Numbered from the stretch's first letter, positions 19,990 through 63,757 are shown. The stretch: DNA of 64,000 nt from Ignavibacteria bacterium (GCA_020635205.1 JACKAE010000005.1:258361-322360); one strand, 5' to 3'. The notes: generated from the sequence alone by a model not told the origin. Numbers and translations are program-made.

Positions 19990-20086
19990 GTGTGTTGTGT
20001 GGTATTAATAAATATGTTGATCTTTAGCAAACGTGTACCTTTATCAAGTGACATGTTGATCTGCTTCTGCTGAGATATTCATGATT

Positions 20087-22722: not shown

Positions 22723-23003
22723 TAGGTAATAGGGAGTCGAATGTGGGTACTATTGTGGCTATGAGAATCGCACTTCACAATGTACTTGGTTATTGAAGCC
22801 AGTAAGTCGAGTGTGAAGGCACTCAGGAACAAGAACGCAATTGTTGTCAAATAATTAACAAGAGAGTGCGAGCAGCAAGTTCTTCTTTCCACAATCTAAT
22901 TCCCCAAGACGATAGTTGTTCGGAGTTGTTCCCTTGCTGAAGAATACAAGTAGAATGTATGCACTCAAAATGCTAATAGAAATTAAAATTCATTAGAGGT
23001 GAC

Positions 23004-24140
23004 ATGCCTATTCGAGGAAATCCTTTGATCTATAAGGGACAAGGAAAAGATTGGGGGCACTTAGATGCGAGTGAAATGCCAATTGACGTAAGCTCAGTTA
23101 ATATTAGTGCGTTCCCTACTCGTGCATACTTTTGGCCTGAATCAAATGAATATGCATTGACTGTTACTGAGGTTGACACCGACAATCGTTTAGATATTCA
23201 AAATTTACGATCAAGTATCCCACTTGATCTACATGTCATTATCCCATCAGAATCCTTTAAGTGCAAGGCCTGTGTGGATATATTAGCAACACAGAAAATA
23301 TTCGACTCTTTAGGGTGGGGAATCAGGTTGAGGAATGTGAATTTTGAGTATAATCCTGGCTTATGCAATACCCTTTGCGATTCCAGTGATTCGCGTTTGA
23401 AAGAAATTTCAAGACCCAATAGTAATACACTTAATGTCTTCTACTGCTCTAATGTTAAGGTAAACATCCGTGAAAAAGGTGAAAAACAAAGCTCTGCATA
23501 CGGCAATGCAGGGCAAGGCTTTGTTATGTTGGGATTTGCATCTTCCCCTCACCTTATGGCCCATGAGCTTTTACACACAATGGGCATGAAAGATATCACT
23601 GATGAGAACCTCTCTCATTATTTTTTGTCGCAGTTCTCGTTAAGCCGAACAACTATTACTGGTGGGCAAATAGCCTGTTCTCATTATTATCGATATTCGA
23701 TTGTAGCTAATGGATCGTGTGAATGTGACTTCCCAGGTTCTATCGATCCTTGTTTGCCGTCAGCAGTATCTATGCCTGAACGCTCTCTAACTACGGGAAG
23801 GGCTGAATTCTTGAGTTCTACTGATCAACTTCTTACTCTCGATTGTTCATACACTCCAATAGATACTACCTTTGCGAGTTGGGTTGATGAAGAGCAGGCT
23901 GATCGTCTCATCGGAATTTTAAGTGAAGCTTCAGAACGTGAAATGATAGAAGAACAAGATTTTATAGAGTCTTGGGTTTCTTTTATTAGAGATGCATACA
24001 ACGATTTATGGGACAACCTTTTTCCAAGAACCAACGGGGAAAATTGCCGATTGTATATACAAGAATCACTATATCGTGTTTTATGTAGAGGGCTAATAAT
24101 CTTAGTGGAAAGTAATAGAGAATTCTTCACTTCTGAATAA
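23004..24140 (+). CDS. hypothetical protein with HExxH zinc-metallopeptidase-like motif, AT-rich (foreign)
   Basis: 378 aa with HELLH in the context GFASSPHLMAHELLHTMGM, and several Cys. GC is clearly lower than surrounding genes. No signal peptide seen. Confidence 0.5.
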   Translation: MPIRGNPLIYKGQGKDWGHLDASEMPIDVSSVNISAFPTRAYFWPESNEYALTVTEVDTDNRLDIQNLRSSIPLDLHVIIPSESFKCKACVDILATQKIFDSLGWGIRLRNVNFEYNPGLCNTLCDSSDSRLKEISRPNSNTLNVFYCSNVKVNIREKGEKQSSAYGNAGQGFVMLGFASSPHLMAHELLHTMGMKDITDENLSHYFLSQFSLSRTTITGGQIACSHYYRYSIVANGSCECDFPGSIDPCLPSAVSMPERSLTTGRAEFLSSTDQLLTLDCSYTPIDTTFASWVDEEQADRLIGILSEASEREMIEEQDFIESWVSFIRDAYNDLWDNLFPRTNGENCRLYIQESLYRVLCRGLIILVESNREFFTSE

Positions 24141-24152
24141 AACAATAGAAAT

Positions 24153-24593
24153 ATGCCTGAAGTTGTATTTGATGCGGGAACGCATAGTCTGAAACTTGAA
24201 ATTCCCAGTGATTTATGGGGGTATATCTATATCCGATTTATAGATGTCAATCGGGTAAGAAGTATCAAGTTGTATGCTGTCTCGTCAGTTGGAGTTCAAT
24301 CACTTATACACGAGTGGATATCATGTGACTATCCTTATTTGAGTGATACAACACACTTGGTTTATAAGGAATTGCCTCCGGCGTATGATGGCTCATATTA
24401 TCGTATTGTACCAGAATACCATCCAACGTCTATCTGTTCTGCCCCATCTCCTACTAATACGCTATATGCTGCCCCAAGCAATTCAGTAATATTCCCAGCA
24501 TCCGATTATTATCATTCGGCATGGGATTTTGATTTTGATGGCACAAAAACACAAATTATTATTGTTATGGAGAAAGATCGTGGTGGTGGCTAA
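24153..24593 (+). CDS. hypothetical protein (AT-rich cassette partner)
   Basis: 146 aa, 12 nt downstream of the previous gene. Same low GC. No recognisable motif. Confidence 0.4.
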   Translation: MPEVVFDAGTHSLKLEIPSDLWGYIYIRFIDVNRVRSIKLYAVSSVGVQSLIHEWISCDYPYLSDTTHLVYKELPPAYDGSYYRIVPEYHPTSICSAPSPTNTLYAAPSNSVIFPASDYYHSAWDFDFDGTKTQIIIVMEKDRGGG

Positions 24594-24632
24594 TATTAAT
24601 TTCTGCCAATAACTGGCAGAATTTCTTCATAG

Positions 24633-27600
24633 TCAGTTTGTATGATATAGGTCTAATTGGACTTTGTTTAGTCCATCAATAAATGCTTGAGCGCTCGGAT
24701 GGTCTTTGCCATGCAGATCGATGAATTGTGGCAGATACGTCTCATATATTTTCAAAGCCTCTTCTCGTCGAGAATTGATTCTGCGTAAGGCTGCTGCAAT
24801 GTTAAGCTGACTGGCTATAACACGTGAATGTCCATCAGGGAGATGTTTAATTCGTATTGTCAGCGCACGTTTGTAGGCTTTAAGAGATATTGCGGGTTCC
24901 AAATCGAGTAATAGACCTCCCAAGTTTGTCAACTTTACTGCTATGGAAAGGTGATCCGTCCCAAGCTGTATTTCATCAATTTCGATGGCTTTACGTAATA
25001 CTTGCTCGGCCTCTTCAACGAGGCCGAGCAAATCTAACGGCAGACTGAGATTGGTGAGAACCAGTCCTGTATTCGGATGGTTCTCACCATATATCCCTTC
25101 ATATATCTTTAAGACCTGACGAAAGATAGTTGTAGCCTCTTCATACTTCTCGGCTTGCGTCAACAACGTTGCCATATTATTCATGCACGTAGCAACGCCA
25201 ATATCTACCTTTGTCACAGCATTCCGTTTTAACACTTCCAGCTCATATCGGAAACACTCTTCGGCCTCACTGTATCGTATTTGCCCATAGTAAACCGCTC
25301 CAAGCATTCCCATCGTCGAAGCTGTGTCCCGATGTCCTTTTCCTTGTAGGTGCTCACGTAGTTTCAATGCTCGCTTCAATACTTTTTCTGCTTCTTTGAA
25401 CTCTTTGACTTGGTAGCAGAAAGAGCCAAATTCTTCTAAAGATTGGGCATAATCCAACGAGTTCTTTCCACACGCTTTTCCCGTGAGTTCGACACTTTGC
25501 TTTAACGCTTTTTCTGCGTCACGATAGTTTCCTGCTTCAGTGAGTGATGTTCCGAGAAGTCCAAAGAGTTGAGCCAACGTTCGCTTTTCATTCGGGAGCT
25601 TTTCAGTGATTGTTGTCGCTTGAGCTGCAAACTTTGTAGCGTTAGAGTATTCGCCTGCTACTCTTAAGAACTGCGCTGCTTCTGATAAATGCAGTGCTCG
25701 TTCTTTTCCTTTAAGGTTACGAGGTATCAGGGCTTTTGGGAGATCGCTTCCGCTCGGTAGACTTCCTGCTTCTTTTGCTGTGCGCCAGAATCCTAAGAGA
25801 GTGAAGCGATTCTCTTCAGTGTTAAGTATAGAGAAGAGATTGGTGAGGGCGGAGGAGAGCTCTTCCATTGCACTTACTGCACTCCACCCCGAGAGTTCTT
25901 CCATTGCTCGCCGGAGTGTCGGAGGCTGTGTTGAAAACCATTCTGCAACAGTTCGGTGTGTACTCCGTTTCCCCCTCGCCGACTTCAAATACCGTCTCTC
26001 AACGGCTCCCCTCAAATAGTCGTGGTGGAAGCGGTGAAGTCCTTCTTGTCGGATCATGTGGAAATCAAATGCTGCCAAGAGTTTGGAGAGTTGAGGTGTT
26101 GGTTTGCCAATAATTCCGTGAAGTTCTTCTAAGCTCAACCCATTCCGCGATGCCCAAATCAGACTCATCACTTGGCGTGTCAGCCCTTTCCCAAAGTCAA
26201 CTTCCATCCGCTCGAGAATGCGTTGGTAGAGTTCTTCTAAACTCTCGGCGGCTAAGTAGTGGTTGATTCTATCGTCCAGCTTCTCATGCTGACCGAAGAT
26301 GCGCAGTTCTTCGAGACTTGTTCGGAGATAGAGGGGGTTTGTAGTGTTGCTATTGGAGGCAATGCGTGCAGTTTGCTTCGGTTCAAGCTGTTTGCCGAAG
26401 CGATCAAAGTAAGCGCGGACAGCCTGCTGTCTGGCTCTCGTTCCTAACAAGTGAACGTTTACAGTTGGCCACTTTCGGGCGGTACAGGCCTCCAGCAGAG
26501 AACCGGGGAGCGTGGAGAGAATAATTCTCACATTTGGGTGGAAGTCGAGCGGGAGCCAGTCCAGGTGATCTGTCCCAGCAAGTTGGTTGAGTGCGTCGAT
26601 GAGAATCACAAGGCGATCTTCCCCAAGGCGTGCAAGCCAAGCTGGAAATTCGTTGACGATGTCGGCTGGCTCAAGTGGTGGAGTCTCTTCGATGTCGTAC
26701 CGTTCCTTAATCTCCACCATCACTCGCCTAAGCAATCCGAACTGGTCGCTACTTCCGGGGGTTGCGCCGATATAGTGCTCAATGACGAATGTGTTGGGGT
26801 TTGCCTCGCAATAGCGTTTGCTCCACCAAGAGAGGAGAGAACTTTTTCCCGATCCCGATTCACCTGTAACGACAATCGGATAAACCCGCGAGTTCTCCCC
26901 CTTCTTTGATGAAGTTGTTGCTGTGGCAACGTATTCATCTAATTTCCGCAGAGTCGGCTCGTGCTCGATATATGCTCGCCTCCTTGATTCCGCAAAGGCG
27001 TTGTGTCCCCTGCGCTCCGCTTCAAGCCACGAATCGTGACTTCCACGTTCGGGAGTAATCGAGTCGAGGATTGATAGTAAATCTTTGCGTACCAGCTCCC
27101 CAAGCTGTTTCGGAGTTCGATAGCCTTCGCGATAGGGAAAATGGCTTTCTTGAACGCGCTCTCGAAATTGTTGTAGTCTTCTTCGTTCGCGTTCGTTCTC
27201 TTCAGAACCATTTGCTTTCTGTCCACCTGACTTCCGTTTGAAGTAGAAGAAGACGTGATCTCGCAATTCTGGATCGTTCATTGGAGCTACCAGACTCTCG
27301 AGTTCCGTCAGACTTCGTTGTTGTTGGATTGCCTCGGAGAGCCAGGGATATCGATCGTCGACATCTGTGATTGCCTTCAGGTCACGTTCATCCGGGCACC
27401 ATCCATAGCGGTCACCGATCAGCGAGATAATGTAGGGTTTGTGCCTCTTGATCTCATCCAAACAAAGTTCAACGATCTTATGTCTGCGCGCCTGCCGTTC
27501 CGTAATTCCCCAACGCAGGTCAACTTCAGTGAAGACTACGCCACGCTCGCGACAGATGCGGCGAATCTCTGGAAACACTTTCTTCACCAAATACTCCCGC

Positions 27601-27665
27601 TCCTCACCCATATCGGTAAATGTGCTGGAGAGGAAGATGCGCAAGTCAGTAGCGGAAGAGTTCAT
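24633..27665 (-). CDS. DUF4062-NACHT/STAND P-loop NTPase-TPR protein (NLR-like, candidate antiviral STAND ATPase)
   Basis: 1010 aa. The N-terminus LRIFLSSTFTDMGEEREYLVKKVFPEI matches DUF4062 (IFISSTFxDMxxERD). Walker A is VVTGESGSGKSSLLS and Walker B-like is LVILIDALNQ. The C-terminal ~400 aa is a run of TPR_10/12-type repeats (e.g. ...NMATLLTQAEKYEEATTIFRQVLKIYEG...). Confidence 0.8.
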   Translation of the reverse strand: MNSSATDLRIFLSSTFTDMGEEREYLVKKVFPEIRRICRERGVVFTEVDLRWGITERQARRHKIVELCLDEIKRHKPYIISLIGDRYGWCPDERDLKAITDVDDRYPWLSEAIQQQRSLTELESLVAPMNDPELRDHVFFYFKRKSGGQKANGSEENERERRRLQQFRERVQESHFPYREGYRTPKQLGELVRKDLLSILDSITPERGSHDSWLEAERRGHNAFAESRRRAYIEHEPTLRKLDEYVATATTSSKKGENSRVYPIVVTGESGSGKSSLLSWWSKRYCEANPNTFVIEHYIGATPGSSDQFGLLRRVMVEIKERYDIEETPPLEPADIVNEFPAWLARLGEDRLVILIDALNQLAGTDHLDWLPLDFHPNVRIILSTLPGSLLEACTARKWPTVNVHLLGTRARQQAVRAYFDRFGKQLEPKQTARIASNSNTTNPLYLRTSLEELRIFGQHEKLDDRINHYLAAESLEELYQRILERMEVDFGKGLTRQVMSLIWASRNGLSLEELHGIIGKPTPQLSKLLAAFDFHMIRQEGLHRFHHDYLRGAVERRYLKSARGKRSTHRTVAEWFSTQPPTLRRAMEELSGWSAVSAMEELSSALTNLFSILNTEENRFTLLGFWRTAKEAGSLPSGSDLPKALIPRNLKGKERALHLSEAAQFLRVAGEYSNATKFAAQATTITEKLPNEKRTLAQLFGLLGTSLTEAGNYRDAEKALKQSVELTGKACGKNSLDYAQSLEEFGSFCYQVKEFKEAEKVLKRALKLREHLQGKGHRDTASTMGMLGAVYYGQIRYSEAEECFRYELEVLKRNAVTKVDIGVATCMNNMATLLTQAEKYEEATTIFRQVLKIYEGIYGENHPNTGLVLTNLSLPLDLLGLVEEAEQVLRKAIEIDEIQLGTDHLSIAVKLTNLGGLLLDLEPAISLKAYKRALTIRIKHLPDGHSRVIASQLNIAAALRRINSRREEALKIYETYLPQFIDLHGKDHPSAQAFIDGLNKVQLDLYHTN

Positions 27666-27722
27666 AGAGTTGAGAGTTGGTAGAGTTTATAGAGTATGTG
27701 AGTGTATAAGATCTATGACTGA
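27656..27722 (+). repeat. heptamer-based dispersed repeat copy between STAND gene start and TPR-LuxR gene end
   Basis: TTCATAGAGTTGAGAGTTGGTAGAGTTTATAGAGTATGTGAGTGTATAAG. Confidence 0.7.
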
Positions 27723-27755: not shown

Positions 27756-29486
27756 CTACAACCCCTGCAAAAATGTTCCTAACTCTACTTTCGAGTCGAT
27801 TTCAATCTTGCCTCGGATTCTGTAGCGTGTGGTTTCTACTGTTCGGGTGGTGACGTGGAGAAGTTCAGCAATCTCACCGGTGGAAAGTCCCGTGACAGCC
27901 AGCGCACAAAACTGCAAGTCTTTCTGTGTTAGGAGTGGCCAGCGGCGGGCGATGCGGTGGAGTAGTTCGGGGTTCGTTCGCTCGAATTGTTGTTGGAAAC
28001 TTTGCCAGTTCATGTTGTTAGAGAAGCTTCTCTTAATCTCCTGTATCATCTCTTCAGCCAACGGTTTTACGTCGTCTCGCGCTTCGGTTTTTATCTTCTC
28101 AAGTTTTTCTACCAGCGTCTCGATGAACTTCTGTTTCTCTATAAGTTGGAGCGAGAGGGCGTTCAGTTCTGCTTTGTCTGTCCGTATCTCTGCCTCCAAT
28201 CGCTCTGCCTTCAGTTGTAGTATCTCTCGTTCGTTCTCCGAACGCTCAAGGTCAAACCGTGTCTGGGTTTCGGCAGCTATCTTCCGCTGCTCCCGCATAT
28301 CTATTTCACGCTGCAATTCAATGTAGCGGCGCAGGTGATGAATACCCTTCGTCGAATCTCCAATCTGCTCTAATGTCTCAGCCAACAGTTCGTGGCAGCG
28401 GCAGAGAATGTTTGTCTCTTCAATCTCTTCTGCTAATAGCAATGTCTGCTCGAGTACGTAGCGTGCGTCGTTCAACTTGCCTGCTCGTGCGTAGAGTGAG
28501 CCGAGGCCGACCAGGGCAATTGCCTGGCCTCGTTGGTCGTTAAGATCTTCGAAAATGTCGAGTGCCTTCACTCGATAGTCGGCGGCACTTTGCAAGTCGC
28601 CACTCCCTTCGGAAATATTCGAGAGGTTTAAGAGGGTGGTGGCAATTCCTTTCTGGTCGTGTAGTGCGTCGTAGATTGCTAAGGCTCGGAGTCCACAGTG
28701 GAGTGCACTCTCAACCTGACCTATCGCTGTGTAGATGTTCGTCAGGTTCACCAACGTCATCACTTCCAGTGCGTGAGAACGTGAGTCGTGGAATTGGGTC
28801 AGCGCCGACTGCAAGTGTTCGAGTGCTCTCTTCGTCTCTCCAAGCTCTGCGTATGCAATTCCAATATCGCTCAGGGCGCGTCCCCTCTCTTCAGAGGGAG
28901 CACTCTTTTCGGCAATGCGGAGTAAGTCCAAGAAGAGGGGGAGTGCGCGGGCATGATCTCCGATCGTCGTGTAGAACTCCCCCAACTCCTTCAGAGCACT
29001 CTTCTGTTCCTCACGATTCTCCTCTTTTTTGGAGAGGTCAATTGCTTCCTTATAGAACTCTGTCGTCTCCGCAAAGCGTTTTAGTTCTCTGGAGGCACGT
29101 GCAGATTTTAGGTTAAGCCGAATGCGCTCTTCAGTTGCATCGACATCTTTAAAGATGCGGAGTGCTTTCCCCCACGACTTTAGTGCCTGCTTCCAATTAT
29201 TTCCCCGGGCGTGACAATCTCCCTCAAGTTCAAATCCTTCACCGATTGAAACTGAGCGATTTAAATCTTCAGCAAGAGTAATCATCTCTTGCAGCCAGTT
29301 GAAATGTTCCTCCGTAGGGGGAACGTGATGTTCTGAGAGAGTGCGCCCCAGCGACTGGAGTATCGACAGGCGGTCAGGAAGACTCGTCGTTGTGTCGAGA
29401 CGTTTGGCCAGAGAACGAAGCGTTGTCGAGTAAGTACTCATCAACCACACCTGATAAGTAAGTAGTACTGCGGGATATTCAAGCAA
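27756..29486 (-). CDS. TPR-repeat / coiled-coil / LuxR(GerE)-type HTH transcriptional regulator
   Basis: 576 aa with N-terminal TPR repeats, a central coiled coil (ERLEAEIRTDKAELNALSLQLIEKQKFIETLVEKLE) and a C-terminal LuxR HTH (LTQKDLQFCALAVTGLSTGEIAELLHVTTRTVETTRYRIRGKI). Confidence 0.8.
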   Translation of the reverse strand: MLEYPAVLLTYQVWLMSTYSTTLRSLAKRLDTTTSLPDRLSILQSLGRTLSEHHVPPTEEHFNWLQEMITLAEDLNRSVSIGEGFELEGDCHARGNNWKQALKSWGKALRIFKDVDATEERIRLNLKSARASRELKRFAETTEFYKEAIDLSKKEENREEQKSALKELGEFYTTIGDHARALPLFLDLLRIAEKSAPSEERGRALSDIGIAYAELGETKRALEHLQSALTQFHDSRSHALEVMTLVNLTNIYTAIGQVESALHCGLRALAIYDALHDQKGIATTLLNLSNISEGSGDLQSAADYRVKALDIFEDLNDQRGQAIALVGLGSLYARAGKLNDARYVLEQTLLLAEEIEETNILCRCHELLAETLEQIGDSTKGIHHLRRYIELQREIDMREQRKIAAETQTRFDLERSENEREILQLKAERLEAEIRTDKAELNALSLQLIEKQKFIETLVEKLEKIKTEARDDVKPLAEEMIQEIKRSFSNNMNWQSFQQQFERTNPELLHRIARRWPLLTQKDLQFCALAVTGLSTGEIAELLHVTTRTVETTRYRIRGKIEIDSKVELGTFLQGL

Positions 29487-34006: not shown

Positions 34007-36334
34007 TTGATAATTATAATGTGTGATGTGAAACCATCTGTGCTGTCTCTTCACAGTGCAGTTCTGCTCCCCTGCTTGCTTCTTCTGGTAGTTGTCGGGA
34101 AAGGCTATGCGCAACAAGATTCTACTGGAAGTGAGCCGGAACCACTCGGCTACATTGGTCTCTTCGGAGGAATTACTCTGAACTCCCATCTTGCCAGCAT
34201 GGATCCTCTCAGCCTGACAGGTGGTCCTCCCGGAACAACAGAACATATCTTTACGAAAGGATCAGGAACTGGGTGGACTGGAGGACTTCTGGTTGAGTTC
34301 CCTCTCAGTACTATCTTTGGTGTTGGTGGGCGTTTGGCAATGCAGCAGCGTGGGGGGGAGATGACTGGGGAGTATGAAAATCGTGTCGATGTCCTAACGC
34401 GAGGTGGGGTCGTTCGTCCAGCAACTGTTGAGGGAACTATCACAAGTTCGCTCAACTATCTTTCCCTGACACCTCACTTCCGGGTAATGCCCGAATCACT
34501 CCCTCTCTACCTCTTTGCAGGCCCTTCCATTATGGTTCCGCTGACAACAACCTACGACTATACCGAAGAGATTACCTCTGAAGAGGGATTAGTTTTTCCG
34601 AATGTCAACGGTCCCAAGCGAACCCGTGTGACGCAGGGAGCTATACCAAAGCCAGATACGAAACTCGGGGCTACTGTCGGTATCGGTGTCGAGATTGCAG
34701 TCAGCGATCGATTGGCTCTTCTGCTGGATGCCCAGTATGCCCCGATGATCGGAGATATTACCGCAGCATACGGAAGTGATCGGGATTGGAAAGCCGACAT
34801 TATTTCCTTTACTCTCGGGTTGAAAACAGGTTTCGGTCAACGGAAGGTGGCACTTCCACCACCGCCACCACCGCCAGATACAACAGTTGTGGAAGAGGAT
34901 AGCGTTACCTCAGTACAAGCCAAAGGGGTAACCGATGCCGGGCTTGTAGACACATTGGTGGCTGGCTCACAGCAGGTGCAGCAGACTGAAGTGCACGCTC
35001 TGCTCCCCTACATTTTCTTCGACCAAGACTCCGCTACTATTCCAGATCGCTACGTCCGAATTGATCGGCGAGATGTGCGGACGTGGCAAGAGGAGAGAAT
35101 CGAGCGGGGTTCCAGCATGAACGTCTACTACCAGATTCTCAACATTATCGGCTATCGAATGCGGAATGCTCGCAATGCCGACGTTACGATCACCGGATGC
35201 GTAGGACAGTTCGAGTCACCCGACAGCACCCTTGCGCTACGCCGTGCCGAGGCCGCACGCGATTATTTGCGCGATGTCTGGAGAATTCGTGAAGATCGTA
35301 TGAAAGTGGTTGCCCGCGGGTTGCCAGCAAACCCATCTCTCAGTGAAGTTGATACGCTTGAGGGGGACACGGAGAATCGTCGTGTTGAGTTCCACTCCTC
35401 GATGCTCTCGCTGATCGGCCCTGTCCGTCTTCCCGACACCCTTCTCCTCGCTCCAGCCGGAGTTATCCGTCTTCTCCCCCCCGCTGCCGATGTTCCTGAC
35501 TCAATTGCACAGCTTGAGTCGTGGCAGGTGAACGTTACTGTTGGCGATTCAGTGATTCAGCGGGCTGCCGCCGGATTTGGTCCTCCACCTGAGAAGATCG
35601 ACTTAGAATTGAAGTCTCGTCCTGACCTAAACCGTCGCGGCCCAATCGAGATTACCTCGGAGTTAATTATTCTCGATTCGCTCTACGTCCGCCGTCGGTC
35701 GTTGCCGAGTACTTCGGTCTGGTTTGTCGAAGAAGGAGGTTTTGAAGTAGATAGGAATATCGAGGGGGGCATGTATGTGGATCGATATAACCTGCTTCTC
35801 TACAGCTTCGACTCAGCAGGAATCTTTGATTTCTCGCAGCAGGCAGCAATTATTATGGATGAGCGAATCAACCCGGAATCTGATGTGACAATTACCGGCT
35901 ACACCGACCGCATTGGACTTCCCTACTACAACAAGCGGCTCGCTAAAGGACGTGCCGAACGAGCTGCCCAGATTATGGGATTGGAAAACGCAAAGATTGT
36001 CGGTGTGGGTGAGCGGGATACGATCTACAATAATGATTTTCCTGAAGGACGATATTACTCTCGGACGGTAGTTGTGGAGATAAAAACACCGATCGTGAAG
36101 GAGGTCGAGAAGGTGGAGAAGAAATCGGATTCCACAGAGGTTGCTCCTAAAAAGGCCGAGGGGGGTGATGAAGAGACTGTGCCGTTTTCAGGAAGTGTAG
36201 AGGAAGAGGGAGCATCAAGCAAACCGGCAAATACGGAAACTCCTGAAAAAGCCACCTCTACCACGCCCAACTCGCGCAGACGAGAATCTGAAGAGGTTCC
36301 TACCAGTGTTACCTTGCCAGCAGAAGATGATTAA
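34007..36334 (+). CDS. OmpA-family outer membrane protein with tandem OmpA-like domains
   Basis: 775 aa with signal peptide, beta-rich N-terminal region and a Pro-rich linker (PPPPPPPDTT). Two OmpA_C-like peptidoglycan-binding segments (ITGCVGQFESPDSTLALRRAEAARDYL; ITGYTDRIGLPYYNKRLAKGRAERAAQIM). Acidic C-terminal tail. Confidence 0.7.
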   Translation: MIIIMCDVKPSVLSLHSAVLLPCLLLLVVVGKGYAQQDSTGSEPEPLGYIGLFGGITLNSHLASMDPLSLTGGPPGTTEHIFTKGSGTGWTGGLLVEFPLSTIFGVGGRLAMQQRGGEMTGEYENRVDVLTRGGVVRPATVEGTITSSLNYLSLTPHFRVMPESLPLYLFAGPSIMVPLTTTYDYTEEITSEEGLVFPNVNGPKRTRVTQGAIPKPDTKLGATVGIGVEIAVSDRLALLLDAQYAPMIGDITAAYGSDRDWKADIISFTLGLKTGFGQRKVALPPPPPPPDTTVVEEDSVTSVQAKGVTDAGLVDTLVAGSQQVQQTEVHALLPYIFFDQDSATIPDRYVRIDRRDVRTWQEERIERGSSMNVYYQILNIIGYRMRNARNADVTITGCVGQFESPDSTLALRRAEAARDYLRDVWRIREDRMKVVARGLPANPSLSEVDTLEGDTENRRVEFHSSMLSLIGPVRLPDTLLLAPAGVIRLLPPAADVPDSIAQLESWQVNVTVGDSVIQRAAAGFGPPPEKIDLELKSRPDLNRRGPIEITSELIILDSLYVRRRSLPSTSVWFVEEGGFEVDRNIEGGMYVDRYNLLLYSFDSAGIFDFSQQAAIIMDERINPESDVTITGYTDRIGLPYYNKRLAKGRAERAAQIMGLENAKIVGVGERDTIYNNDFPEGRYYSRTVVVEIKTPIVKEVEKVEKKSDSTEVAPKKAEGGDEETVPFSGSVEEEGASSKPANTETPEKATSTTPNSRRRESEEVPTSVTLPAEDD

Positions 36335-41996: not shown

Positions 41997-43658
41997 ATGC
42001 TACTTTTACGACGACTTTTCATCTCAGCTCTGCTCTGCAGCGCGACATCATTATCAGTTTTTGCTCAGGAGTACCGGTGGGGTGCTGGACTTCATGGAGG
42101 AGCTACGATTGCAGTTACCGAGGGAAGTGAAGTAAATCCATCTTGGGGGGTACGAGGATTCCTGCGTTACGCATTGCTTGAGCAATTGCACGCGGAGATC
42201 GGTGCTGGCTTTATGAGCTACGTCGATAAGCAGGAAGACTTGAACCTTCTCAACGTTCAGGGAACGGCGATTCCTATCGACCTTCGATTTAACATCACTC
42301 CTTGGGCAAACAATACGTTTAGCCCATATGCTGTGGTTGGTGCTGGCCTTGTTCTCTACAATGCTGATACTGCCGATGGAAAGACCACGTTCCCTCCATT
42401 AGCTCCACGTGAGGAGCTTTCTGGATCCTACGTTGCAATCCCTGTTGGTGTGGGAGCCAATTTTAAGCTCTCGAAAAACTTTGCGATTGAGTTGCAAGGT
42501 GTTGACTACCTCGGGTTGAACGATGCTCTCAACCCAAATCTCGACGATAAGAATGATGGTCTCTGGAATATCATGGCTGGCTTTGTTTACGCCTTTGGTG
42601 ATGGTGGTGAAAAGGATACCGATGGTGATTTGCTCACCGATAAGTATGAGCAGTCAATCGGTACTGACCCGAACAACCCAGATACAGATGGGGATGGACT
42701 CACCGACGGTGCGGAGGTGAACAGCCATCGTACCGATCCGCTGAAGCGCGATACCGACGGCGATAGCTTGAGCGACGGAGCCGAAGTGAACACGCACGGT
42801 ACAAATCCTCTCGAAAAGGATACTGATGGTGATGATTTGACCGACGGCGCGGAAATCAATCAGTACAAGACAAACCCGTTGAACAAGGATACCGATGGTG
42901 AAGGACTTTCCGATGGAGATGAGGTGAACCGTTATCGCACCGATCCAACGAAAGCTGACACCGACGGCGACACATTGAACGATGCAGAGGAGCTTGACCG
43001 CTACAAGACCGACCCGCTGAAGGTAGATACCGATGGTGATGGCCTGACTGATGGTGCGGAAGTGACGACACACTCGACTAATCCGAACGACAAGGATAGT
43101 GATAAGGATGGTCTTACCGATGGTGATGAAGTAAACAAGTATCGCACAAACCCGAATAAGACGGATACGGACGATGGTGGCATTTCCGACGGAGCAGAAG
43201 TAAATCAGAAGAAGACAAACCCACTTGATGGCAGCGACGACGTGTTGGTTGAGCGTACCGAGACTCGCACTGTTGTTGAGCGTGAAGTTGTCACAAACAA
43301 CGTCTTCGATACCGACAAACCACTTGTTCTGAAGGGGATTGTGTTCGAGACTGGTAAGTGGGAGATCAAGCCAGAGTCAGAGCGAGTACTGAACGAGGTA
43401 CTGGGAAGTTTGAGAGATGATAATCCAGACGTTCGTGTGGAGATTGGTGGACATACCGACAACGTCGGTTCTGACCAGAACAACCAGACGCTCTCGCTGA
43501 ACCGTGCAAACTCTGTGAAGCAGTGGCTTGTCGATCACGGCATCGCCGCAAACCGTATCGAGACGAAGGGATATGGTGAGGCACAGCCAACTGCAACGAA
43601 CGACACACCGGAAGGTCGCCAAGAGAATCGCCGTATCGAGATGCGGAAGATCAACTAA
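41997..43658 (+). CDS. OmpA-family protein with N-terminal beta-barrel, 9 thrombospondin type-3 Ca-binding repeats and C-terminal OmpA domain
   Basis: Signal peptide, then repeated DTDGDGLTDGAEVNxxxTNPLxKDTDGD units in about 22-aa periodicity. C-terminal OmpA_C (GHTDNVGSDQNNQTLSLNRANSVKQWL). Terminator downstream. Confidence 0.85.
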   Translation: MLLLRRLFISALLCSATSLSVFAQEYRWGAGLHGGATIAVTEGSEVNPSWGVRGFLRYALLEQLHAEIGAGFMSYVDKQEDLNLLNVQGTAIPIDLRFNITPWANNTFSPYAVVGAGLVLYNADTADGKTTFPPLAPREELSGSYVAIPVGVGANFKLSKNFAIELQGVDYLGLNDALNPNLDDKNDGLWNIMAGFVYAFGDGGEKDTDGDLLTDKYEQSIGTDPNNPDTDGDGLTDGAEVNSHRTDPLKRDTDGDSLSDGAEVNTHGTNPLEKDTDGDDLTDGAEINQYKTNPLNKDTDGEGLSDGDEVNRYRTDPTKADTDGDTLNDAEELDRYKTDPLKVDTDGDGLTDGAEVTTHSTNPNDKDSDKDGLTDGDEVNKYRTNPNKTDTDDGGISDGAEVNQKKTNPLDGSDDVLVERTETRTVVEREVVTNNVFDTDKPLVLKGIVFETGKWEIKPESERVLNEVLGSLRDDNPDVRVEIGGHTDNVGSDQNNQTLSLNRANSVKQWLVDHGIAANRIETKGYGEAQPTATNDTPEGRQENRRIEMRKIN

Positions 43659-57972: not shown

Positions 57973-59679
57973 CTACCGTTGCGGCAGCTTCTCCATATCG
58001 AACGGCTTCAACCCCTCGCTTCCGTCGATAACGGAAGCCTGTTCAATATTCTTCCCTAACTTTTCGAGTAGTGCCGTCTCCTCTTTCAGGCCAGCGTCGA
58101 AGAGTGTGATGTTCTCCAGATCAACTAATGCCTGAGCGCGAGCAATTGCCTCGAGAGCTTCCTCTTTCTTCCCTTCGGTGAAGAGCGTACAACCGTCGCG
58201 AAGACCGAAGTAGACGTTGGTTAGGGCAACCGCGATCCGCATTCCCTCGTGCGTGTAGAATTGCACACCTGGTTTCAGCGACATCTTTGCCTCGTGCCGA
58301 AGTTCTGCGTGAGTCTTGCGGCTTTTGCCGTTAACATCGGTGTAGCTCAGCGAGCCATCGGCCAGCAGGTCGCCACGTTTGAAGGCGAGGGGGGAGTCGT
58401 CGTCACGTTCGTAGCGGAGGATGATTGCGCCTCGATTCGATGAGAAGAAGACGGTTGGCACATGTAGCTCTGCGTCTCGGTCTCCCGGCTTCCAGGTCGG
58501 TAATCCGTAGACGGCAACGAGTTTCATCCCTTCTGGAGTCTTGACATTCACTCGTAAGTCGTAGACAACGGGAGTGACGAGGTAATCGAACTCTTTCTCG
58601 AAGACTCTCGCAATTTTGTCGGGCGTCTCCAAGAAGAAGAAGTTTCCTCCACGAAGCTGCGAGATGTGATAGATCAACTCCTGTCCAAAATCTAAGCCAA
58701 CACCGAAGGCAGTCAGGCCAATTCCTTGATTTGCATACTTCTCGGTGATTGTCCGAAAGCTACCGGAGTCGGTTCGCCCAATATTCGGTCGGGCGTCGGT
58801 GAAGAGCATCACTCTCTTCTGGTAGCCTTTCCGCTCTGAAAGGTTGATAAGCTGAGAGAATCCACTAATCAACCCTGTTTCGATGTTTGTTCCTCCGTCC
58901 GCGTCGAGACTTTCGATTGCTGCAATGATCGCTTTCTTATCCTTTACTTCTGTCGGCTTCAACAGCAGTTCTGGATTATCGTTGAAGGCGATGAGGGTGA
59001 GAACATCTTCCGGATCAAGTTTTTCCACGAGAGAGCGTAGTGCCTGCTTCACGGCATTCATGCTCGCCCCCTTCATCGAACCGCTTTTATCGATTACTAC
59101 AGCAAGCTGAAGGTTCGGACGGCGAAAATCTTCTGGCTTAATACCGGAGGTCATGCCGAGGTGGATGAAGAGTGCTGGCTGTTTTGTGTCGGCTGCCGGG
59201 GCAAAACCGTAGCCAAGTGAGAGGCAAAGTTTCTCGTCGCAGTCAGTTGCTGGTGTTGGGATGTCGTGCTCGCTGTAGAGACCTTCGGGGGAGAAGTCGA
59301 TGAAGTTCGGAATGCGTCCCGATTCGATAAGTTGGCGGGCGTAGCCGATATCTTGCGCGCCACCGACAGTTGCTCCGAGAGTGGTGGGGGCAGCCATTGT
59401 ACCGGGTGCTATGAGCTTCATTCCTCCAGCCTGTAGGTTTCCAGTTCGGAACCCATTGGCATTGAATGCATCTTCGCGTATCGAAGTCGTATCCATTGTC
59501 GGAGCTTCCTGCTCTATAGCTTGTGCCAGTCCGTTCTCTACAGTGAAAAGCGAAGTGAAGAGAACAATAAGTCCGACAACTCGTCTGAAGCCAATATTTA
59601 CGTAGGTCATGGTTATCCGTTCTATCATTAATGCGTAGTTGTCACTATCGTGAATCTTTCTCGACTGACATTGTTGCAA
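57973..59679 (-). CDS. secreted VWA-domain protein
   Basis: 568 aa with signal peptide and MIDAS VIDKSGSMKG ... TNIETGL ... LFTDARPN. Long C-terminal extension. Confidence 0.75.
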   Translation of the reverse strand: MQQCQSRKIHDSDNYALMIERITMTYVNIGFRRVVGLIVLFTSLFTVENGLAQAIEQEAPTMDTTSIREDAFNANGFRTGNLQAGGMKLIAPGTMAAPTTLGATVGGAQDIGYARQLIESGRIPNFIDFSPEGLYSEHDIPTPATDCDEKLCLSLGYGFAPAADTKQPALFIHLGMTSGIKPEDFRRPNLQLAVVIDKSGSMKGASMNAVKQALRSLVEKLDPEDVLTLIAFNDNPELLLKPTEVKDKKAIIAAIESLDADGGTNIETGLISGFSQLINLSERKGYQKRVMLFTDARPNIGRTDSGSFRTITEKYANQGIGLTAFGVGLDFGQELIYHISQLRGGNFFFLETPDKIARVFEKEFDYLVTPVVYDLRVNVKTPEGMKLVAVYGLPTWKPGDRDAELHVPTVFFSSNRGAIILRYERDDDSPLAFKRGDLLADGSLSYTDVNGKSRKTHAELRHEAKMSLKPGVQFYTHEGMRIAVALTNVYFGLRDGCTLFTEGKKEEALEAIARAQALVDLENITLFDAGLKEETALLEKLGKNIEQASVIDGSEGLKPFDMEKLPQR

Positions 59680-59923
59680 CTCACGTGGGGGAAGATTGCA
59701 AAAGGTTCAAGCTATTCCAAACATTGTCACACTCCAAGCCCACTGTCACAAATCGGAGCCGAGTTCGTCGCCTAACTGTTCTTCAAGTTTGTTCTGTGTC
59801 AGCCGACCGGGTAACGACGGGAAGTGTCCACCTTGTAACGCAAAATAGGATTGCACTAATAGGGAGGGAAACGTACTTTTCCGGTTTGCAGGACTTTATC
59901 TCCACATAATAGATCAAAAGAGT

Positions 59924-60745
59924 ATGCCTGTTCATCGCCACATCATTACCCTCTTCCTCCTCTTCGGGGTAGGATTATTGATTCAAAGTGGTTGTAAAAG
60001 TAGCGAAGCGACTGTAGATGGTGAAGCCGTAGGGGCGTTGAAGGGAGTTGGTTCAGATACCTCACAAAAGGAATCTGCCTCTGCAATGGCTGCAATGATA
60101 ACGCGAGAGGGAGAAATCATTCAAGACTATTGGTCAGAGTCAAGAACGTCCCAACGGGTAACACAGATTTCTCCGAGAACTCTTTACTCAGGACCGAACG
60201 CTCTGACAATTAAGAACGTGAACGGTATTTCGAGCATCTCCGTTCGTTCTGGAGCGGAAGATGTTAGTTGGTCGGTTGAAGGGGCTGGTTTTTTTCCCGA
60301 TTGTCCTGAAGAACAGGAAATTCTTATCAGCATTGAGACTGTCAGCAAATCGGCGCAGATTCTTGTGGAGGTAGTGGATTGCAACCAGAACGAAAGTGCG
60401 GAGTGGGTGCAGGTGCAGAACAAAATTTGGACTCTGGATGAGGTGATCTTTCCAGATGTACGGGTTGGCCAGACAGTTTGCCGACCATTTAGAGTTTCAA
60501 CTGCTCAGCGGGAAATTCTCGATTCAGTCACGTTCCCCTCAAATTTTCCTCTGACATTTGAAAGCGAGCCGGAGTTTCCGGTCGAGGTCTTTGGAACAAT
60601 CTTCTGGTACAACGTCTGCTTTACAGGAAAGAAGCCGGGTGTCTACGTCTTCCCAGTAATAACGTGGATGCGCCGGGAAGAACCGGCTGGGGGGTATAAG
60701 ACCTATGCAGTTGCCGATACAGGTAGAATACGAGTGATTCGATGA
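59924..60745 (+). CDS. lipoprotein, member 1 of tandem paralogous family (N-domain only)
   Basis: Lipobox LIQSGC. Shares with the next two genes the blocks GPNALTIKN, CP(E/D/N)...(I/V), W(T/N)LDEV.FPD..VG..VCRPF.V and (Y/F)WYNVCF.GKKPGVYVFPVITWMRREEPAGGYKTYAVADTGRIRV. Confidence 0.6.
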   Translation: MPVHRHIITLFLLFGVGLLIQSGCKSSEATVDGEAVGALKGVGSDTSQKESASAMAAMITREGEIIQDYWSESRTSQRVTQISPRTLYSGPNALTIKNVNGISSISVRSGAEDVSWSVEGAGFFPDCPEEQEILISIETVSKSAQILVEVVDCNQNESAEWVQVQNKIWTLDEVIFPDVRVGQTVCRPFRVSTAQREILDSVTFPSNFPLTFESEPEFPVEVFGTIFWYNVCFTGKKPGVYVFPVITWMRREEPAGGYKTYAVADTGRIRVIR

Positions 60746-60774
60746 GATTGAGAGAAAGAACAAACGAAGAACGT

Positions 60775-62208
60775 ATGCACATTACTAAACAACTCCTTGT
60801 ACTATCACTACTTCTCCTCAGCTTCCACTCAATTTCTCTTTACTCCCAGCCATTTGTGGTCTATCCCACTCATATCTATCCCGGCGAAAACGTTCTGACA
60901 ATTAAAAGTTCTTCTAAGGGGATTAGGAGAATCACGACAAACATCAGCCCTGTTCAATTTGCTCCGTTTATAGAAGTAGGAGGAGATGGCTCGGTTGGGG
61001 GGTGTCCTAATGAACACGATCTTCGCGTATCCCTGCATAAAGCGGATCGGAATATCGCCCTTACAATCAACGTGGAGTTCTGTGATGGTTCGACGCAGGC
61101 TCGGAATATCGGCATTAACAAGACGTGGACACTTGATGAGGTTCCATTAGAGGATGTTTACGTTGGGGATACTGCCTGCACCGAGTTCCGGATCGGTGCA
61201 ACCGCACCGGAGTATCTTGATTCTGTCACGATTGATGCTCCAAACGCCTACACCCGGTTCTCGTTTCCTCCTCCAATACAATTGGGGGGAGTAGAGTATC
61301 GATACGAAGTCTGTTTCGTTGCCGATAGGCCCGGCTTGTACCGCTTCCCTGTCATTACTTGGATGCGCCGAGATGAAGTGTCAGGGGGGTACTCGAACTA
61401 CCCAGTTGCCGATACCGGAGTTATTCGTGTAAAGCCAAGACCGGGCAACGTGATCCTCGAAGAGATTCCGATAGATACGTCGCAGTGGTTGCCCCCAAAG
61501 GAAGTTACTGATCCAACAACGTTCCGCTCTGTTGCTGTGCCGAATGCAATTATCCCCCCAAAGGGAAGAGCGTTTGTTGGAAGCTACGACGTTCTGGGGC
61601 TTACTGCTGGCTACGCACTAACCGATAATCTATTACTCTTTGCCGGCGGAGCAGTTCCAACGCCAGATGACTGGGGGGGGGTAAATGGGGACATGTTCGG
61701 TGCGTGGTCGCTCGGGGGGAAGGGGGGGACGGAACTCTTTGAGAAGTTCAACGTTGCCGGAGGGTATCATTTCGGGCAGAGTACGCTCGACAAGGAGTTT
61801 ACCCCGGACGAAGTCGACTCCCGCATTACGCTTCACGTTCCCTACGCCGCAGTCAGTTATGGTACAGATGACTCTCGAGTTTCGCTGACGGGAGGCTACG
61901 CATTCAAACGCCACTCTACGTGGATCACCACGGATCCGGTTCTCCCTCCGCTCCGAGACGAGTACAACGACGATGCGGCCTTTGCTGTTCTCGGCGGTGA
62001 TTACCGACTTGGCAGACATTGGAAAGTTGCCGGGGAGGCACTTTGGATGGGGAGTGTCGATGTCCTACCGATTGTTGCTACTGGGCGCTACTTTACTGAG
62101 AAGTTTGCACTTGACTTTGGTGTGACCTATGCTGGCATTGCGTTGAATGGTGCTGAAGTACCTCCGATTCCTCTTGTTCCAATCATTTCTGCCATTTTTG
62201 TTTTTTGA
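60775..62208 (+). CDS. secreted protein, member 2 of paralogous family (N-domain + C-terminal putative beta-barrel ending FVF)
   Basis: Signal peptide (MHITKQLLVLSLLLLSFHSISLYSQ). N-domain homologous to member 1. The C-terminal ~250 aa is rich in Gly/aromatic alternation and ends ...PIISAIFVF. Confidence 0.6.
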   Translation: MHITKQLLVLSLLLLSFHSISLYSQPFVVYPTHIYPGENVLTIKSSSKGIRRITTNISPVQFAPFIEVGGDGSVGGCPNEHDLRVSLHKADRNIALTINVEFCDGSTQARNIGINKTWTLDEVPLEDVYVGDTACTEFRIGATAPEYLDSVTIDAPNAYTRFSFPPPIQLGGVEYRYEVCFVADRPGLYRFPVITWMRRDEVSGGYSNYPVADTGVIRVKPRPGNVILEEIPIDTSQWLPPKEVTDPTTFRSVAVPNAIIPPKGRAFVGSYDVLGLTAGYALTDNLLLFAGGAVPTPDDWGGVNGDMFGAWSLGGKGGTELFEKFNVAGGYHFGQSTLDKEFTPDEVDSRITLHVPYAAVSYGTDDSRVSLTGGYAFKRHSTWITTDPVLPPLRDEYNDDAAFAVLGGDYRLGRHWKVAGEALWMGSVDVLPIVATGRYFTEKFALDFGVTYAGIALNGAEVPPIPLVPIISAIFVF

Positions 62209-62281
62209 TGCAGGTGGGATATGCCTACATTAGAGGATGAATGGCAAGATTGCGTACACACGAAAACGGCAACTATTTTCT

Positions 62282-63757
62282 ATGCGATTCCTTGGTGCTC
62301 TGGTTCTGATATTTTTTGCGGCTGGAACGGCTTCTCTCATGGCGCAGCGCATTTCAATTACTCCTACAGAAATCTATCCGGGTGAAAACGTTCTGACGAT
62401 CAACGCTCCCGGAGGCATTCGGAGTGTGCGAGTTGTTCTCTCCCCAAGGATCGAATCGATGGCGGAGGTGCGGAAGACTGGGATTATCGGTGGTTGTCCT
62501 GATAGCAGAGATATTGAGATGAGAGTGGACTTCGCAACCACGATTACTCCTCTGCTGGGTTTGGTCTATATAGAGCGGTGTAATGGGGTGGTGGATTCAC
62601 TGCCACTACCGACACTGAGAAGTTGGAATCTCGACGAGGTTCCCTTTCCCGATGCTGAGGTGGGCGAAGAAGTTTGTCGCCCATTTCAGGTAACTCTCTC
62701 TGGAGGGATATCAGGTCTGGAAGGTTCGGGGTTTGTCGTTACTGGGGGGGACGACCTCTACCTCGACTCAGTCTCAATTCCTGAGCCGCAGGCTCGACTC
62801 CGCTACTCCCTCCCTCCTCCTCTCACAATTAAAGCAGGTTCTGTCTACCGTTACAACGTCTGCTTCAAAGCAGAGAAGCCGGGCATTTACAAGTTCCCAG
62901 TGATTACCTGGATTCGTCGCGAACAGCCTGCCGGAGGCTATACAAATTATCCAGTTGCCGATACTGGAATAATTCGAGTACTGCCGAAGCGGAGTAATGT
63001 CAGTCTTTCTGAGATTCCACTCGACACAATGAGTAGGGATAATCCAACACCGGTTACGGACCCAACAATTTTCCGATCTGTTGCCGTTCCAAATGCGGTG
63101 ATCCCTCCCAAAGGGAAGTTCTTCGTTGGGAGCTACGACCTGCTGGGGCTCACGGCTGGCTATTCTGTGGCCGATGAACTCCTAATTTTTGCCGGTGGGG
63201 CTGTGCCAACGCCGGACGATTGGGCTGGCGTAAACGGCGATATGTTCGGCGCGTGGTCGGTCGGGGCAAAGCTCGGAACGCAACTTTTCGGTCTGCTGAA
63301 TATCGCAGTTGGATACCACTACGGGCAGAGTATTCTGGACAAAGAGTTTACAACAGATGAACTCGATTCGCGAATCACCGTCAGCGTCCCCTACGGTGCA
63401 ATCAGCTTCGGTACAGATGACCGGCGCGTATCTGTTACTGCTGGGTATGCCTTTAAGCGTCACTCCACTTGGATTACTACCGATCCCGTTCTTCTCCCCT
63501 TCCGCGATGACTACCGCAAAGATGCTGCCTTCGGTGCGCTTGGTGGGGACTACCGCTTTGCGAAACATTGGAAAGTGGCCACGGAGTTTGCAATGATGCA
63601 GACTGTAGATGTTGCTCCGATCATCTTCACGGCTCGCTATTTCACAAACACGTTTGCGATTGATTTCGGCGCTGCCTACGCTGGCCTTACGTTGAACAAT
63701 GCCGAGGCTCCTCCCTTCCCAGTATTGCCGATGTTGTCGGCAATTTTTGTGTTTTAG
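62282..63757 (+). CDS. secreted protein, member 3 of paralogous family (N-domain + C-terminal putative beta-barrel ending FVF)
   Basis: Signal peptide MRFLGALVLIFFAAGTASLMAQ. About 55-60% identical to member 2 across full length by eye; ends ...PMLSAIFVF. Confidence 0.6.
   Translation: MRFLGALVLIFFAAGTASLMAQRISITPTEIYPGENVLTINAPGGIRSVRVVLSPRIESMAEVRKTGIIGGCPDSRDIEMRVDFATTITPLLGLVYIERCNGVVDSLPLPTLRSWNLDEVPFPDAEVGEEVCRPFQVTLSGGISGLEGSGFVVTGGDDLYLDSVSIPEPQARLRYSLPPPLTIKAGSVYRYNVCFKAEKPGIYKFPVITWIRREQPAGGYTNYPVADTGIIRVLPKRSNVSLSEIPLDTMSRDNPTPVTDPTIFRSVAVPNAVIPPKGKFFVGSYDLLGLTAGYSVADELLIFAGGAVPTPDDWAGVNGDMFGAWSVGAKLGTQLFGLLNIAVGYHYGQSILDKEFTTDELDSRITVSVPYGAISFGTDDRRVSVTAGYAFKRHSTWITTDPVLLPFRDDYRKDAAFGALGGDYRFAKHWKVATEFAMMQTVDVAPIIFTARYFTNTFAIDFGAAYAGLTLNNAEAPPFPVLPMLSAIFVF

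Follow-up and report, generated by a model that had tools for sequence, protein, structure and literature searches.

What is the function of three adjacent genes whose products belong to no recognized family and which lie beside a divergently transcribed gene for a secreted VWA protein? The question is posed by positions 59924-63757 of a 64,000-nucleotide stretch of DNA from Ignavibacteria bacterium (GCA_020635205.1, JACKAE010000005.1:258361-322360), referred to here as the window; coordinates given without a locus label are those of the window. A previous interpretation made without database searches (the sequence-only reading) described the genes, here termed M1, M2, and M3, as a tandem triplet of paralogous surface proteins. 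The analysis reported here indicates that their products share a module of two immunoglobulin (Ig)-like domains, which would be tethered to the outer membrane by a lipid in M1 and by a β-barrel in M2 and M3, and that genes for such Ig-barrel proteins almost always adjoin a gene for a YfbK-like VWA protein, which may dock onto the Ig pair.

M1 (59924-60745; 273 amino acids), M2 (60742-62208; 488 amino acids), and M3 (62237-63757; 506 amino acids) are co-oriented open reading frames (ORFs) on the plus strand, as had been claimed, and they do share an N-terminal module. The start sites annotated by NCBI correspond to Met12 (60775) in M2 and Met16 (62282) in M3; if M2 instead starts at Met1, its ATG overlaps the stop codon of M1 (ATGA). 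Three-way alignment of the proteins revealed 61 invariant columns and recovered the blocks IYPGENVLTI, GGCP(D/N), W(T/N)LDEVP, and YRYNVCF..KPG.Y.FPVITW.RR...GGY.NYPVADTG.IRV. Identity amounts to 40-45% for the shared module in M1, M2, and M3 and to 71% for the C-terminal portions of M2 and M3. The module profile matched each protein with E values of 1e-70 to 1e-76, which excludes chance as the source of the likeness. Judged by these comparisons, M1-M3 are real, expressed-type genes and true paralogues. M3 is 100% identical to a protein annotated as hypothetical (P0001) and M2 is identical to another "hypothetical protein" (P0017), both from a metagenome-assembled genome (MAG) labeled Ignavibacteriae; orthologues of M1 were found in loci L001 and L006, and a further homologue (P0067) shares its layout.

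Inspection of the polypeptide sequences resolved two architectures. In M1, a signal peptide with a lipobox-like LLIQSG/C (amino acids 1-24) is followed by a low-complexity tether of ∼50 residues and by the double-Ig module at the extreme C terminus (amino acids 79-272; 60158-60739, plus strand; N-module hidden Markov model E value, 2e-69). That M1 is a lipoprotein, as proposed, was retained with the qualification "probable", in that a Cys does end the hydrophobic core of the signal peptide but position −3 is noncanonical. In M2, a signal peptide precedes the module (amino acids 36-234; 60847-61443, plus strand; profile E value, 1.6e-72), a linker, an invariant DPTTFRS segment that begins at amino acid 257 (61510, plus strand), and a predicted C-terminal barrel (barrel profile E value, 5e-114) that ends in AIFVF. 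M3 has the same order on the plus strand: a signal peptide with cleavage at ..LMA/Q, as read from the sequence; the module (62345-62992), with sandwich 1 at amino acids ∼40-125 and sandwich 2, of the ASH type, at ∼130-250; a linker modeled at low confidence by AlphaFold (amino acids 255-266); the invariant segment DPTIFRSVAVPNAVIPPKG (amino acids 275-293; 63059-63115); and a predicted barrel of ∼12 strands (amino acids 295-506; 63119-63754). The shared domain is thus present in all three proteins, but at a size of ∼200 residues (199-216) rather than the 230 first read. Similarly, what had been taken as a C-terminal domain of ∼250 residues in M2 and M3 does contain a barrel but is really a variable linker plus ∼232 residues that comprise the invariant segment and the barrel.

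Three side observations concern these genes. In a second assembly of the same organism (GCA_041391565.1; locus L001, 8462-9927), the M2 orthologue at the same locus is split into ORFs of 381 and 167 amino acids, either by a frameshift (pseudogene) or by an assembly error; the VWA gene, M1, and M3 are all intact in that assembly. The final codons of M3, up to its end at 63757, include a hairpin with a 9-bp stem followed by TTTTGTGTTT (63724-63744), which may be an operon terminator; the hairpin scan as a whole gave no enrichment over shuffled sequences. Finally, Gln37 of M3, the first residue past the predicted signal-peptide cleavage, is Gln in at least 90% of the family and likewise in long VWA forms (..AQ). 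Gln at the mature N terminus fits the Bacteroidetes "Q-rule" of N-terminal pyroglutamate.

The fold of the module was examined with AlphaFold, using alignments of 53 sequences for full-length M3 and 30 sequences for the module alone. The full-length model had a mean predicted local distance difference test score (pLDDT) of 87.2. For the module, the pLDDT was 91.5 and the predicted template-modeling score (pTM) was 0.83, a high value from which two rigidly packed β-sandwiches are expected. The final two strands of the module, at 15-17 residues each (AlphaFold and DSSP), form a long terminal hairpin. A Foldseek search of the PDB with the module returned ASH/Hydin/CFAP-type Ig domains of ciliary central-pair proteins, the SPD-2 domain of CEP192, and the tandem Ig domains D00-D0 of intimin; the matches to the central-pair ASH proteins and CEP192 had E values of 3e-9 to 1e-6 and a probability of 1.0, with template-modeling (TM) scores that were low (∼0.4) because the interdomain angle differs.

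Sequence comparison pointed in the same direction for one of the two domains. The giant proteins matched by the module profile consist of HYDIN_VesB_CFA65-like Ig, ASH, and DUF1573 repeats according to Pfam, and single ASH repeats scored only 8-19 bits against this profile. Alignment of sandwich 2 with 24 Pfam-called HYDIN-Ig, ASH, and DUF1573 repeats by hhalign, the repeats having been chosen among matches of the module's own profile, gave a probability of 97.4% (p = 1.1e-11) over 103 columns. Because of this match, sandwich 2 is classified at the sequence level as a remote ASH/HYDIN-type Ig domain. It shares the fold of the ASH, HYDIN_VesB_CFA65-like Ig, and DUF1573 families (PF15780, PF22544, and PF07610) and shows profile-profile similarity to them. 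Unlike these domains, the module reaches no Pfam gathering score, has a conserved internal disulfide and the long terminal hairpin, and has its sandwich 2 locked to a preceding Ig-like sandwich for which no sequence relatives were detectable. Internal duplication of sandwich 1 and sandwich 2 was considered and rejected, there being no sequence signal for it.

Four Cys residues are conserved in the module. All four are present in 103 of 109 homologues; only the first pair is lost in four and only the second pair in two, and a single Cys is lost in none. Because Cys residues are lost only pairwise, two disulfides are expected, in agreement with the earlier proposal that the Cys pairs form disulfides, and each sandwich likely holds one intradomain bond; the loops enclosed are 28 and 62 residues long. 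The module therefore lies outside the cytoplasm.

In proteins of the M2/M3 type, the module is connected by a linker, 1-137 residues in length (median, 20) and rich in Pro in its longer versions, to the segment DPT(T/I)FRS..(V/I)PNA..P.KG, which shows the highest conservation of any part of the protein and directly precedes the barrel. This segment was modeled at a pLDDT of ∼82 as coil with isolated bridges. DSSP assigned 13 β-segments to amino acids 295-505 of the M3 model, mostly at a pLDDT above 90, in a pattern of 2-3-residue tight turns that alternate with 7-16-residue loops. Both ends of an even-stranded barrel lie in the periplasm; the C-terminal part of M3 probably forms a barrel of ∼12 transmembrane strands, which would have its two ends there. 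Foldseek matched the barrel at a probability of 1.0 to porins, FadL, and VhGalP. By TM score, the best structural match was VhGalP, a 12-stranded porin of the KdgM family (TM, 0.57), followed by porins and FadL. The C-terminal residue is Phe or Trp in 14 of 16 aligned barrels (signal peptides were read from the sequence). These results support the earlier proposal of a predicted β-barrel with a terminal aromatic residue over a globular or periplasmic C-terminal domain.

The closest known barrels are those of the OMP_b-brl family (PF13505) and the KdgM/NanC porins, with which the family shares the all-β structure, the short turns and long loops, and the terminal aromatic residue. M2 and M3 scored 25.8 and 20.5 bits, respectively, against PF13505, below the gathering cut-off of 28.7, and five homologues carry a precomputed match to this model. 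In contrast to these families, the M2/M3 barrel is preceded by the invariant 20-residue segment (DPTxFR..P.A..G), always follows an N-terminal extension, carries one long loop (P.PDDWGG) that is strongly conserved in most members, and has no sequence relative in the PDB. Two OmpA-family proteins elsewhere in the window (34007-36334 and 41997-43658), the second of which also contains bacterial TSP3 repeats, start with a barrel and end with an OmpA domain; this is the ordinary barrel-plus-periplasmic-domain kind in the genome, and its domain order is opposite to that of M2 and M3.

The barrel follows 77 of the 109 full modules and is absent after the other 32. Barrel-less members are of two types. 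In those like M1, the hydrophobic core of the signal peptide closes with a Cys, and a tether leads to the module, which forms the extreme C terminus; in the others, a cleavable signal peptide precedes the module, after which comes a tail, acidic or rich in Pro, with no recognizable domain. By eye, a similar lipobox-type Cys is present at the N terminus of ∼10 of 31 other barrel-less homologues. A search of 5.8 billion proteins with the barrel profile returned mostly gene fragments and no new types of passenger.

To the extent covered by public databases, the family proved unrecognized, as had been suspected. Neither Pfam nor NCBIfam contains a family for the N-terminal module of M1-M3, Pfam giving no match at E ≤ 1 for these or for ten barrel-less homologues, so that the module belongs to no well-characterized Pfam family by these scans, and the C-terminal domain matched only OMP_b-brl, below threshold. 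In the PDB, a sequence search with the module profile yielded only chance antibody matches and one with the barrel profile yielded nothing. Sixty relatives were recovered in a separate search of 5.8 billion proteins, none of them named and all from metagenomes or MAGs labeled Ignavibacteriae, Chlorobi, or Kapabacteria. Among 1.84 billion cluster representatives searched with a profile, ∼60 clusters contained the whole module; the other ∼250 matches were giant repeat proteins that aligned with the second half of the profile only. When one genome per GTDB species was scanned, 25 loci were obtained, of which 17, from 16 MAGs, match essentially the whole protein; nine of these MAGs are labeled Kapaibacteria, Chlorobiota, or Ignavibacteria, and seven carry another label or no phylum label. 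The records of loci L009, L012, L018, L019, L020, L022, and L027 are labeled Armatimonadota, Bacteroidota/Bacteroidetes, or "uncultured Alphaproteobacteria"; such deviating labels at loci of the Kapabacteria type are probably taxonomic or binning errors. On the sequences collected, the family is lineage-restricted and confined to Kapabacteria-like MAGs (Chlorobiota or Ignavibacteria labels).

The sequence-only reading had interpreted the triplet as tandem diversification, which the wider comparison does not bear out. Within the sequence available, 14 of 20 distinct loci hold a single copy of the Ig module, which is therefore the norm; tandem arrays occur in six, with at least two copies in one, three copies in two (the window and L006), and four copies in three (L002, L005, and L018). 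The ratio of nonsynonymous to synonymous substitution rates (dN/dS) was determined against the orthologous triplet of a related MAG (L006) and was 0.18 for M1, 0.12 for M2, and 0.07 for M3. By part, the values were 0.14 for the module and 0.06 for the barrel of M2 and 0.09 and 0.02, respectively, for those of M3; the VWA gene gave 0.09. All three genes are under purifying selection (0.02-0.18 across parts), and diversifying selection is ruled out for this comparison.

Evidence for a partner came from the gene that is transcribed divergently from M1. It encodes a secreted YfbK-like VWA protein (57973-59610, minus strand) of 545 amino acids, counted from Met24 of a 568-amino acid ORF that runs to 59679. 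The protein comprises a signal peptide (..GLAQA), an N-terminal spacer of ∼55 residues, the VWA domain (Pfam VWA E value, 1.5e-20) with an intact metal ion-dependent adhesion site (MIDAS; DKSGSM, DxSxS), and a C-terminal β-rich/helical part; at E ≤ 1 in Pfam, only VWA models match, and the flanking regions are unclassified. Among its 168 homologues are some named "Ca-activated chloride channel family protein" by the source databases (JGI and NCBI), a name that we take to denote the YfbK type. The VWA core with its MIDAS, the similar length, and homologues with that annotation are shared with Escherichia coli YfbK, which has been described as a free periplasmic VWA protein (PMC12204202).

ORFs were called in all fetched loci and scored with the module profile, the barrel profile, and the VWA protein of the window. 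Eighteen independent loci were informative, having been found through the Ig-barrel protein and containing enough upstream sequence. In 17 of these, a full-length VWA homologue (E values from 1e-156 to 0) adjoins the Ig-barrel gene, from which it is usually transcribed divergently. The pairing persists with varied orientation and copy number and holds down to ∼40% module identity while the remaining neighborhood changes completely; a locus found from the VWA side (L032) has an Ig-barrel partner too. One locus (L010, 4449-9656) has three tandem VWA paralogues beside a single Ig-barrel gene: a form with a long extension and a cleavable signal, a lipoprotein with a spacer, and a short form. The adjacent α/β-hydrolase, also named previously as a possible partner, is conserved in the closest relatives only, and it was discarded as a part of the system together with the extracytoplasmic function (ECF) sigma factor, the anti-sigma factor, a spondin-like lipoprotein, and a metallophosphatase, all conserved only in the three closest genomes.

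The VWA family is broader than the Ig-barrel family, with forms of ∼470-490 amino acids in Myxococcota and in unlabeled metagenome contigs. A lipobox is present in 56 of 120 VWA-family sequences, and most of the short forms are lipoproteins. Kapabacteria forms have instead a cleavable signal and an N-terminal extension of 60-80 residues, and it is this extension and the pairing with an Ig-barrel gene that distinguish them from YfbK. Among 51 long forms, 21 carry the motif D[ST]T[RK] at the start of the extension under a strict definition and 30 under a relaxed one; all 62 short or lipoprotein forms lack it, and the 50,172 other residues examined contain no further copy. The motif sits 4-10 residues past the signal-peptide cleavage and is followed by a disordered spacer of ∼54 residues (homologues P0210-P0272). 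The copy in the window (DTTSI; 59479-59493, minus strand) retains the first three motif positions only (DTT). A resemblance between D[ST]T[RK] and the invariant DPTTFR of the barrel proteins was also observed.

A second line of evidence was provided by gene fusion. The DPTTFR segment and the same barrel (E values of 1e-90 to 1e-99) end proteins of 1250-1470 amino acids in the same MAGs, in which Pfam detects first VWA_2, then ASH, then a WD40 propeller, and finally a pair of ASH/HYDIN Ig domains immediately ahead of the barrel. Such proteins are encoded at L022 (6725-10771 and 10961-15364, in tandem), L023, L025 (6737-10675), L026, L028 (6350-10678), L029, and L030 (4138-8160). VWA, ASH-type Ig, and barrel domains thus occur either as one polypeptide or as the products of neighboring genes. 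Because the same barrel ends these giant proteins, it appears to be a general anchoring module, and its independent fusion to VWA-containing proteins argues for a functional link between VWA and barrel. The earlier suggestion that the adjacent VWA protein is a partner is therefore upheld by both the adjacency and the fusions.

These observations can be explained by the following minimal model. The Ig-barrel family and the divergently transcribed YfbK-like VWA protein would act as a two-component module, in which the Ig pair serves as a docking platform and keeps the metal-binding VWA protein, otherwise soluble, at the outer membrane. The Ig pair would be tethered in M1 by an N-terminal lipid and the tether of ∼50 residues and in M2 and M3 by the flexible linker, the invariant DPTxFR..PNA segment, which may act as a plug or clamp, and the C-terminal barrel of ∼12 strands, inserted in the manner of substrates of the β-barrel assembly machinery. 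The platform would probably sit at the periplasmic face of the outer membrane. We consider this model to stand at about an even chance of being correct.

The periplasmic placement of the Ig pair is proposed because an even-stranded barrel puts its N terminus in the periplasm and because the components have no recognizable signal for crossing the outer membrane. A C-terminal sorting domain of the type IX secretion system (T9SS; Por_Secre_tail or type B) was lacking in M1-M3 and in the VWA protein, and none was found in those barrel-less homologues that have C-terminal tails, which were searched for it specifically. The same lineage does use T9SS domains, as in a surface ASH-repeat protein (L030) and in Por_Secre_tail neighbors. 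No acidic export motif follows the lipid-bearing Cys in the family or in the lipoprotein forms of the VWA protein, and the VWA protein itself has a plain Sec signal, with a lipobox in shorter homologues. A periplasmic location would place the lipid-anchored, barrel-anchored, and soluble forms and the VWA partner in one compartment. A precedent is offered by the TonB-dependent transporters of Bacteroidetes, which have periplasmic Ig-like N-terminal extensions (PMC12204202). These are likewise outer-membrane barrels of the same superphylum with a folded Ig-like domain at the N terminus, on the periplasmic side, but differ in having 22 strands and a plug rather than ∼12 strands, in the Ig family concerned, and in lacking a link to VWA. 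Surface exposure, as previously assumed, received no positive support: a T9SS domain, an acidic lipoprotein export motif, and an autotransporter signature were all lacking, and the passenger carries long-range disulfides. Nothing supported a role as phage receptor or decoy.

Several points weigh against periplasmic docking. Adjacency and fusion are circumstantial evidence for an interaction between the VWA protein and the Ig pair; one locus (L017) has an Ig-barrel gene with no VWA gene within 10 kb, and neither the VWA homologue of Archangium (Myxococcota) nor that at L033 has an Ig-barrel neighbor. Some lipoproteins of Bacteroidota reach the cell surface through signals that are poorly defined, so that a missing export motif is weak evidence. 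Moreover, if the invariant segment (amino acids 275-293) threaded the barrel, the Ig pair would be placed outside, and the order of signal peptide, passenger, linker, and ∼12-stranded C-terminal barrel is that of an autotransporter.

This last point leads to the alternative that survives best, although we consider it unlikely, namely display of a type V-like kind, in which the barrel exports its own Ig pair, and the VWA-WD40-Ig passengers of the giant proteins too, with DPTxFR threaded through the pore and the products acting as surface adhesins or receptors. Beyond the matching domain order, which is that of classical (type Va) autotransporters, and the small C-terminal barrel with its aromatic end, this reading draws on a single kind of barrel bearing N-terminal regions that vary widely and can be very large; conservation along the protein peaks in the segment before strand 1, which is modeled at a pLDDT of ∼82, and the Ig pair resembles intimin D00-D0. 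Type V-specific features were nonetheless absent: the Pfam Autotransporter model (PF03797) gave no match at E ≤ 1, no autotransporter was present in the top 50 Foldseek matches, and, in place of a helical pore linker, just a 3-residue helix (amino acids 257-259) was modeled between the Ig pair and the barrel. The passenger is, furthermore, an Ig fold with two conserved long-range disulfides, and type Va translocation copes poorly with bonds that close off loops of 28 and 62 residues. One third of the family is barrel-less, so that paralogues would occupy different compartments, and the VWA partner has no export signal.

A quite improbable alternative is an adhesion platform like that of Myxococcus, where CglB, a VWA outer-membrane lipoprotein, is retained and shielded by the barrels GltA/B/H, of which GltA and GltB have N-terminal extensions (PMC9946355). 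By analogy, a VWA adhesin would be recruited, shielded, and displayed on the cell by barrels that bear Ig extensions, perhaps with coupling to a motor in the inner membrane. Such a platform would be in keeping with the pairing of a MIDAS-containing VWA protein with barrels, of which some loci encode two or three paralogues, and the short VWA homologues are lipoproteins whose nearest relatives outside Kapabacteria are in Myxococcota. However, no motor or glt-like genes were present in the gene tables of the four loci inspected, the Myxococcota VWA homologue inspected has an unrelated neighborhood, and the VWA protein of the window is soluble rather than lipidated; its partner barrels carry folded Ig domains rather than unstructured extensions. 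The likeness is an analogy of composition only. Least of all survives the view that the Ig-barrel and VWA proteins are functionally unrelated neighbors kept by inherited synteny in a narrow clade, the Ig-barrels being ordinary structural or porin-like proteins, which is very improbable in that, although all loci come from one lineage whose shared ancestry could preserve gene order, the hydrolase and the ECF sigma pair are indeed local synteny only, and L017 lacks the VWA gene, the pair outlasts its changing surroundings at ∼40% module identity in varied orientation and copy number, and the independent barrel fusions point to a functional link.

The intergenic region between the VWA gene and M1 contains a conserved noncoding block (59745-59915, plus strand) upstream of M1. 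It is nearly identical between the window and L006, though the flanking genes have synonymous divergence (dS) of 0.3-0.56, and is partly kept in L008. Within it lies the direct repeat GTAACG-N18-GTAACG (59811-59840). The window has one copy of this repeat against an expectation of 0.05, and L001, L006, and L008 have it at the corresponding position. The block is a candidate promoter or operator and perhaps serves the nearby ECF sigma factor. A structured RNA was rejected (z = 0.12, no Rfam match), as was the repeat as a motif of a wider regulon, its sole other match being inside a coding region.

Apart from this locus, the window contains a stretch of low GC content (20000-27700; 0.43-0.45 versus ∼0.50) that encodes another VWA protein (20087-21157, minus strand), two ORFs without a Pfam match (21829-22446 and 23004-24140), and a 1010-amino acid DUF4062-AAA-TPR protein (24633-27665, minus strand); a TPR-LuxR regulator (27756-29486, minus strand) follows it. 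The stretch could be an acquired island or a defense/signaling locus of the STAND (signal transduction ATPases with numerous domains) type.

As components, Ig-like domains, small outer-membrane barrels, and VWA proteins are all of known kinds. What is new here is the double-Ig module, the invariant segment before the barrel, the reuse of that segment and barrel on giant proteins, and the near-obligate pairing with a YfbK-like VWA protein. Bacterial envelopes commonly contain VWA proteins of the YfbK type, whose binding partners are almost uncharacterized; this locus offers a concrete candidate partner in the form of a folded, outer-membrane-anchored double-Ig module, which could serve as an envelope scaffold or in adhesion or signaling. 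It also reveals, in a little-studied, uncultured lineage, a barrel module that lacks annotation, carries an invariant segment at its N terminus, and anchors both small and very large multidomain proteins. A more speculative proposal, to which we attach a low probability, is that the DPTxFR segment and the barrel of ∼12 strands constitute an undescribed Kapabacteria outer-membrane export/anchoring module, type V-like or Glt-like, that displays Ig pairs and giant VWA-WD40-Ig arrays on the surface, with the soluble VWA protein docking via its N-terminal D[ST]T[RK] peptide. If the module does act at the surface, it would represent a new display route or platform in the Bacteroidota superphylum, where the T9SS is thought to be dominant.

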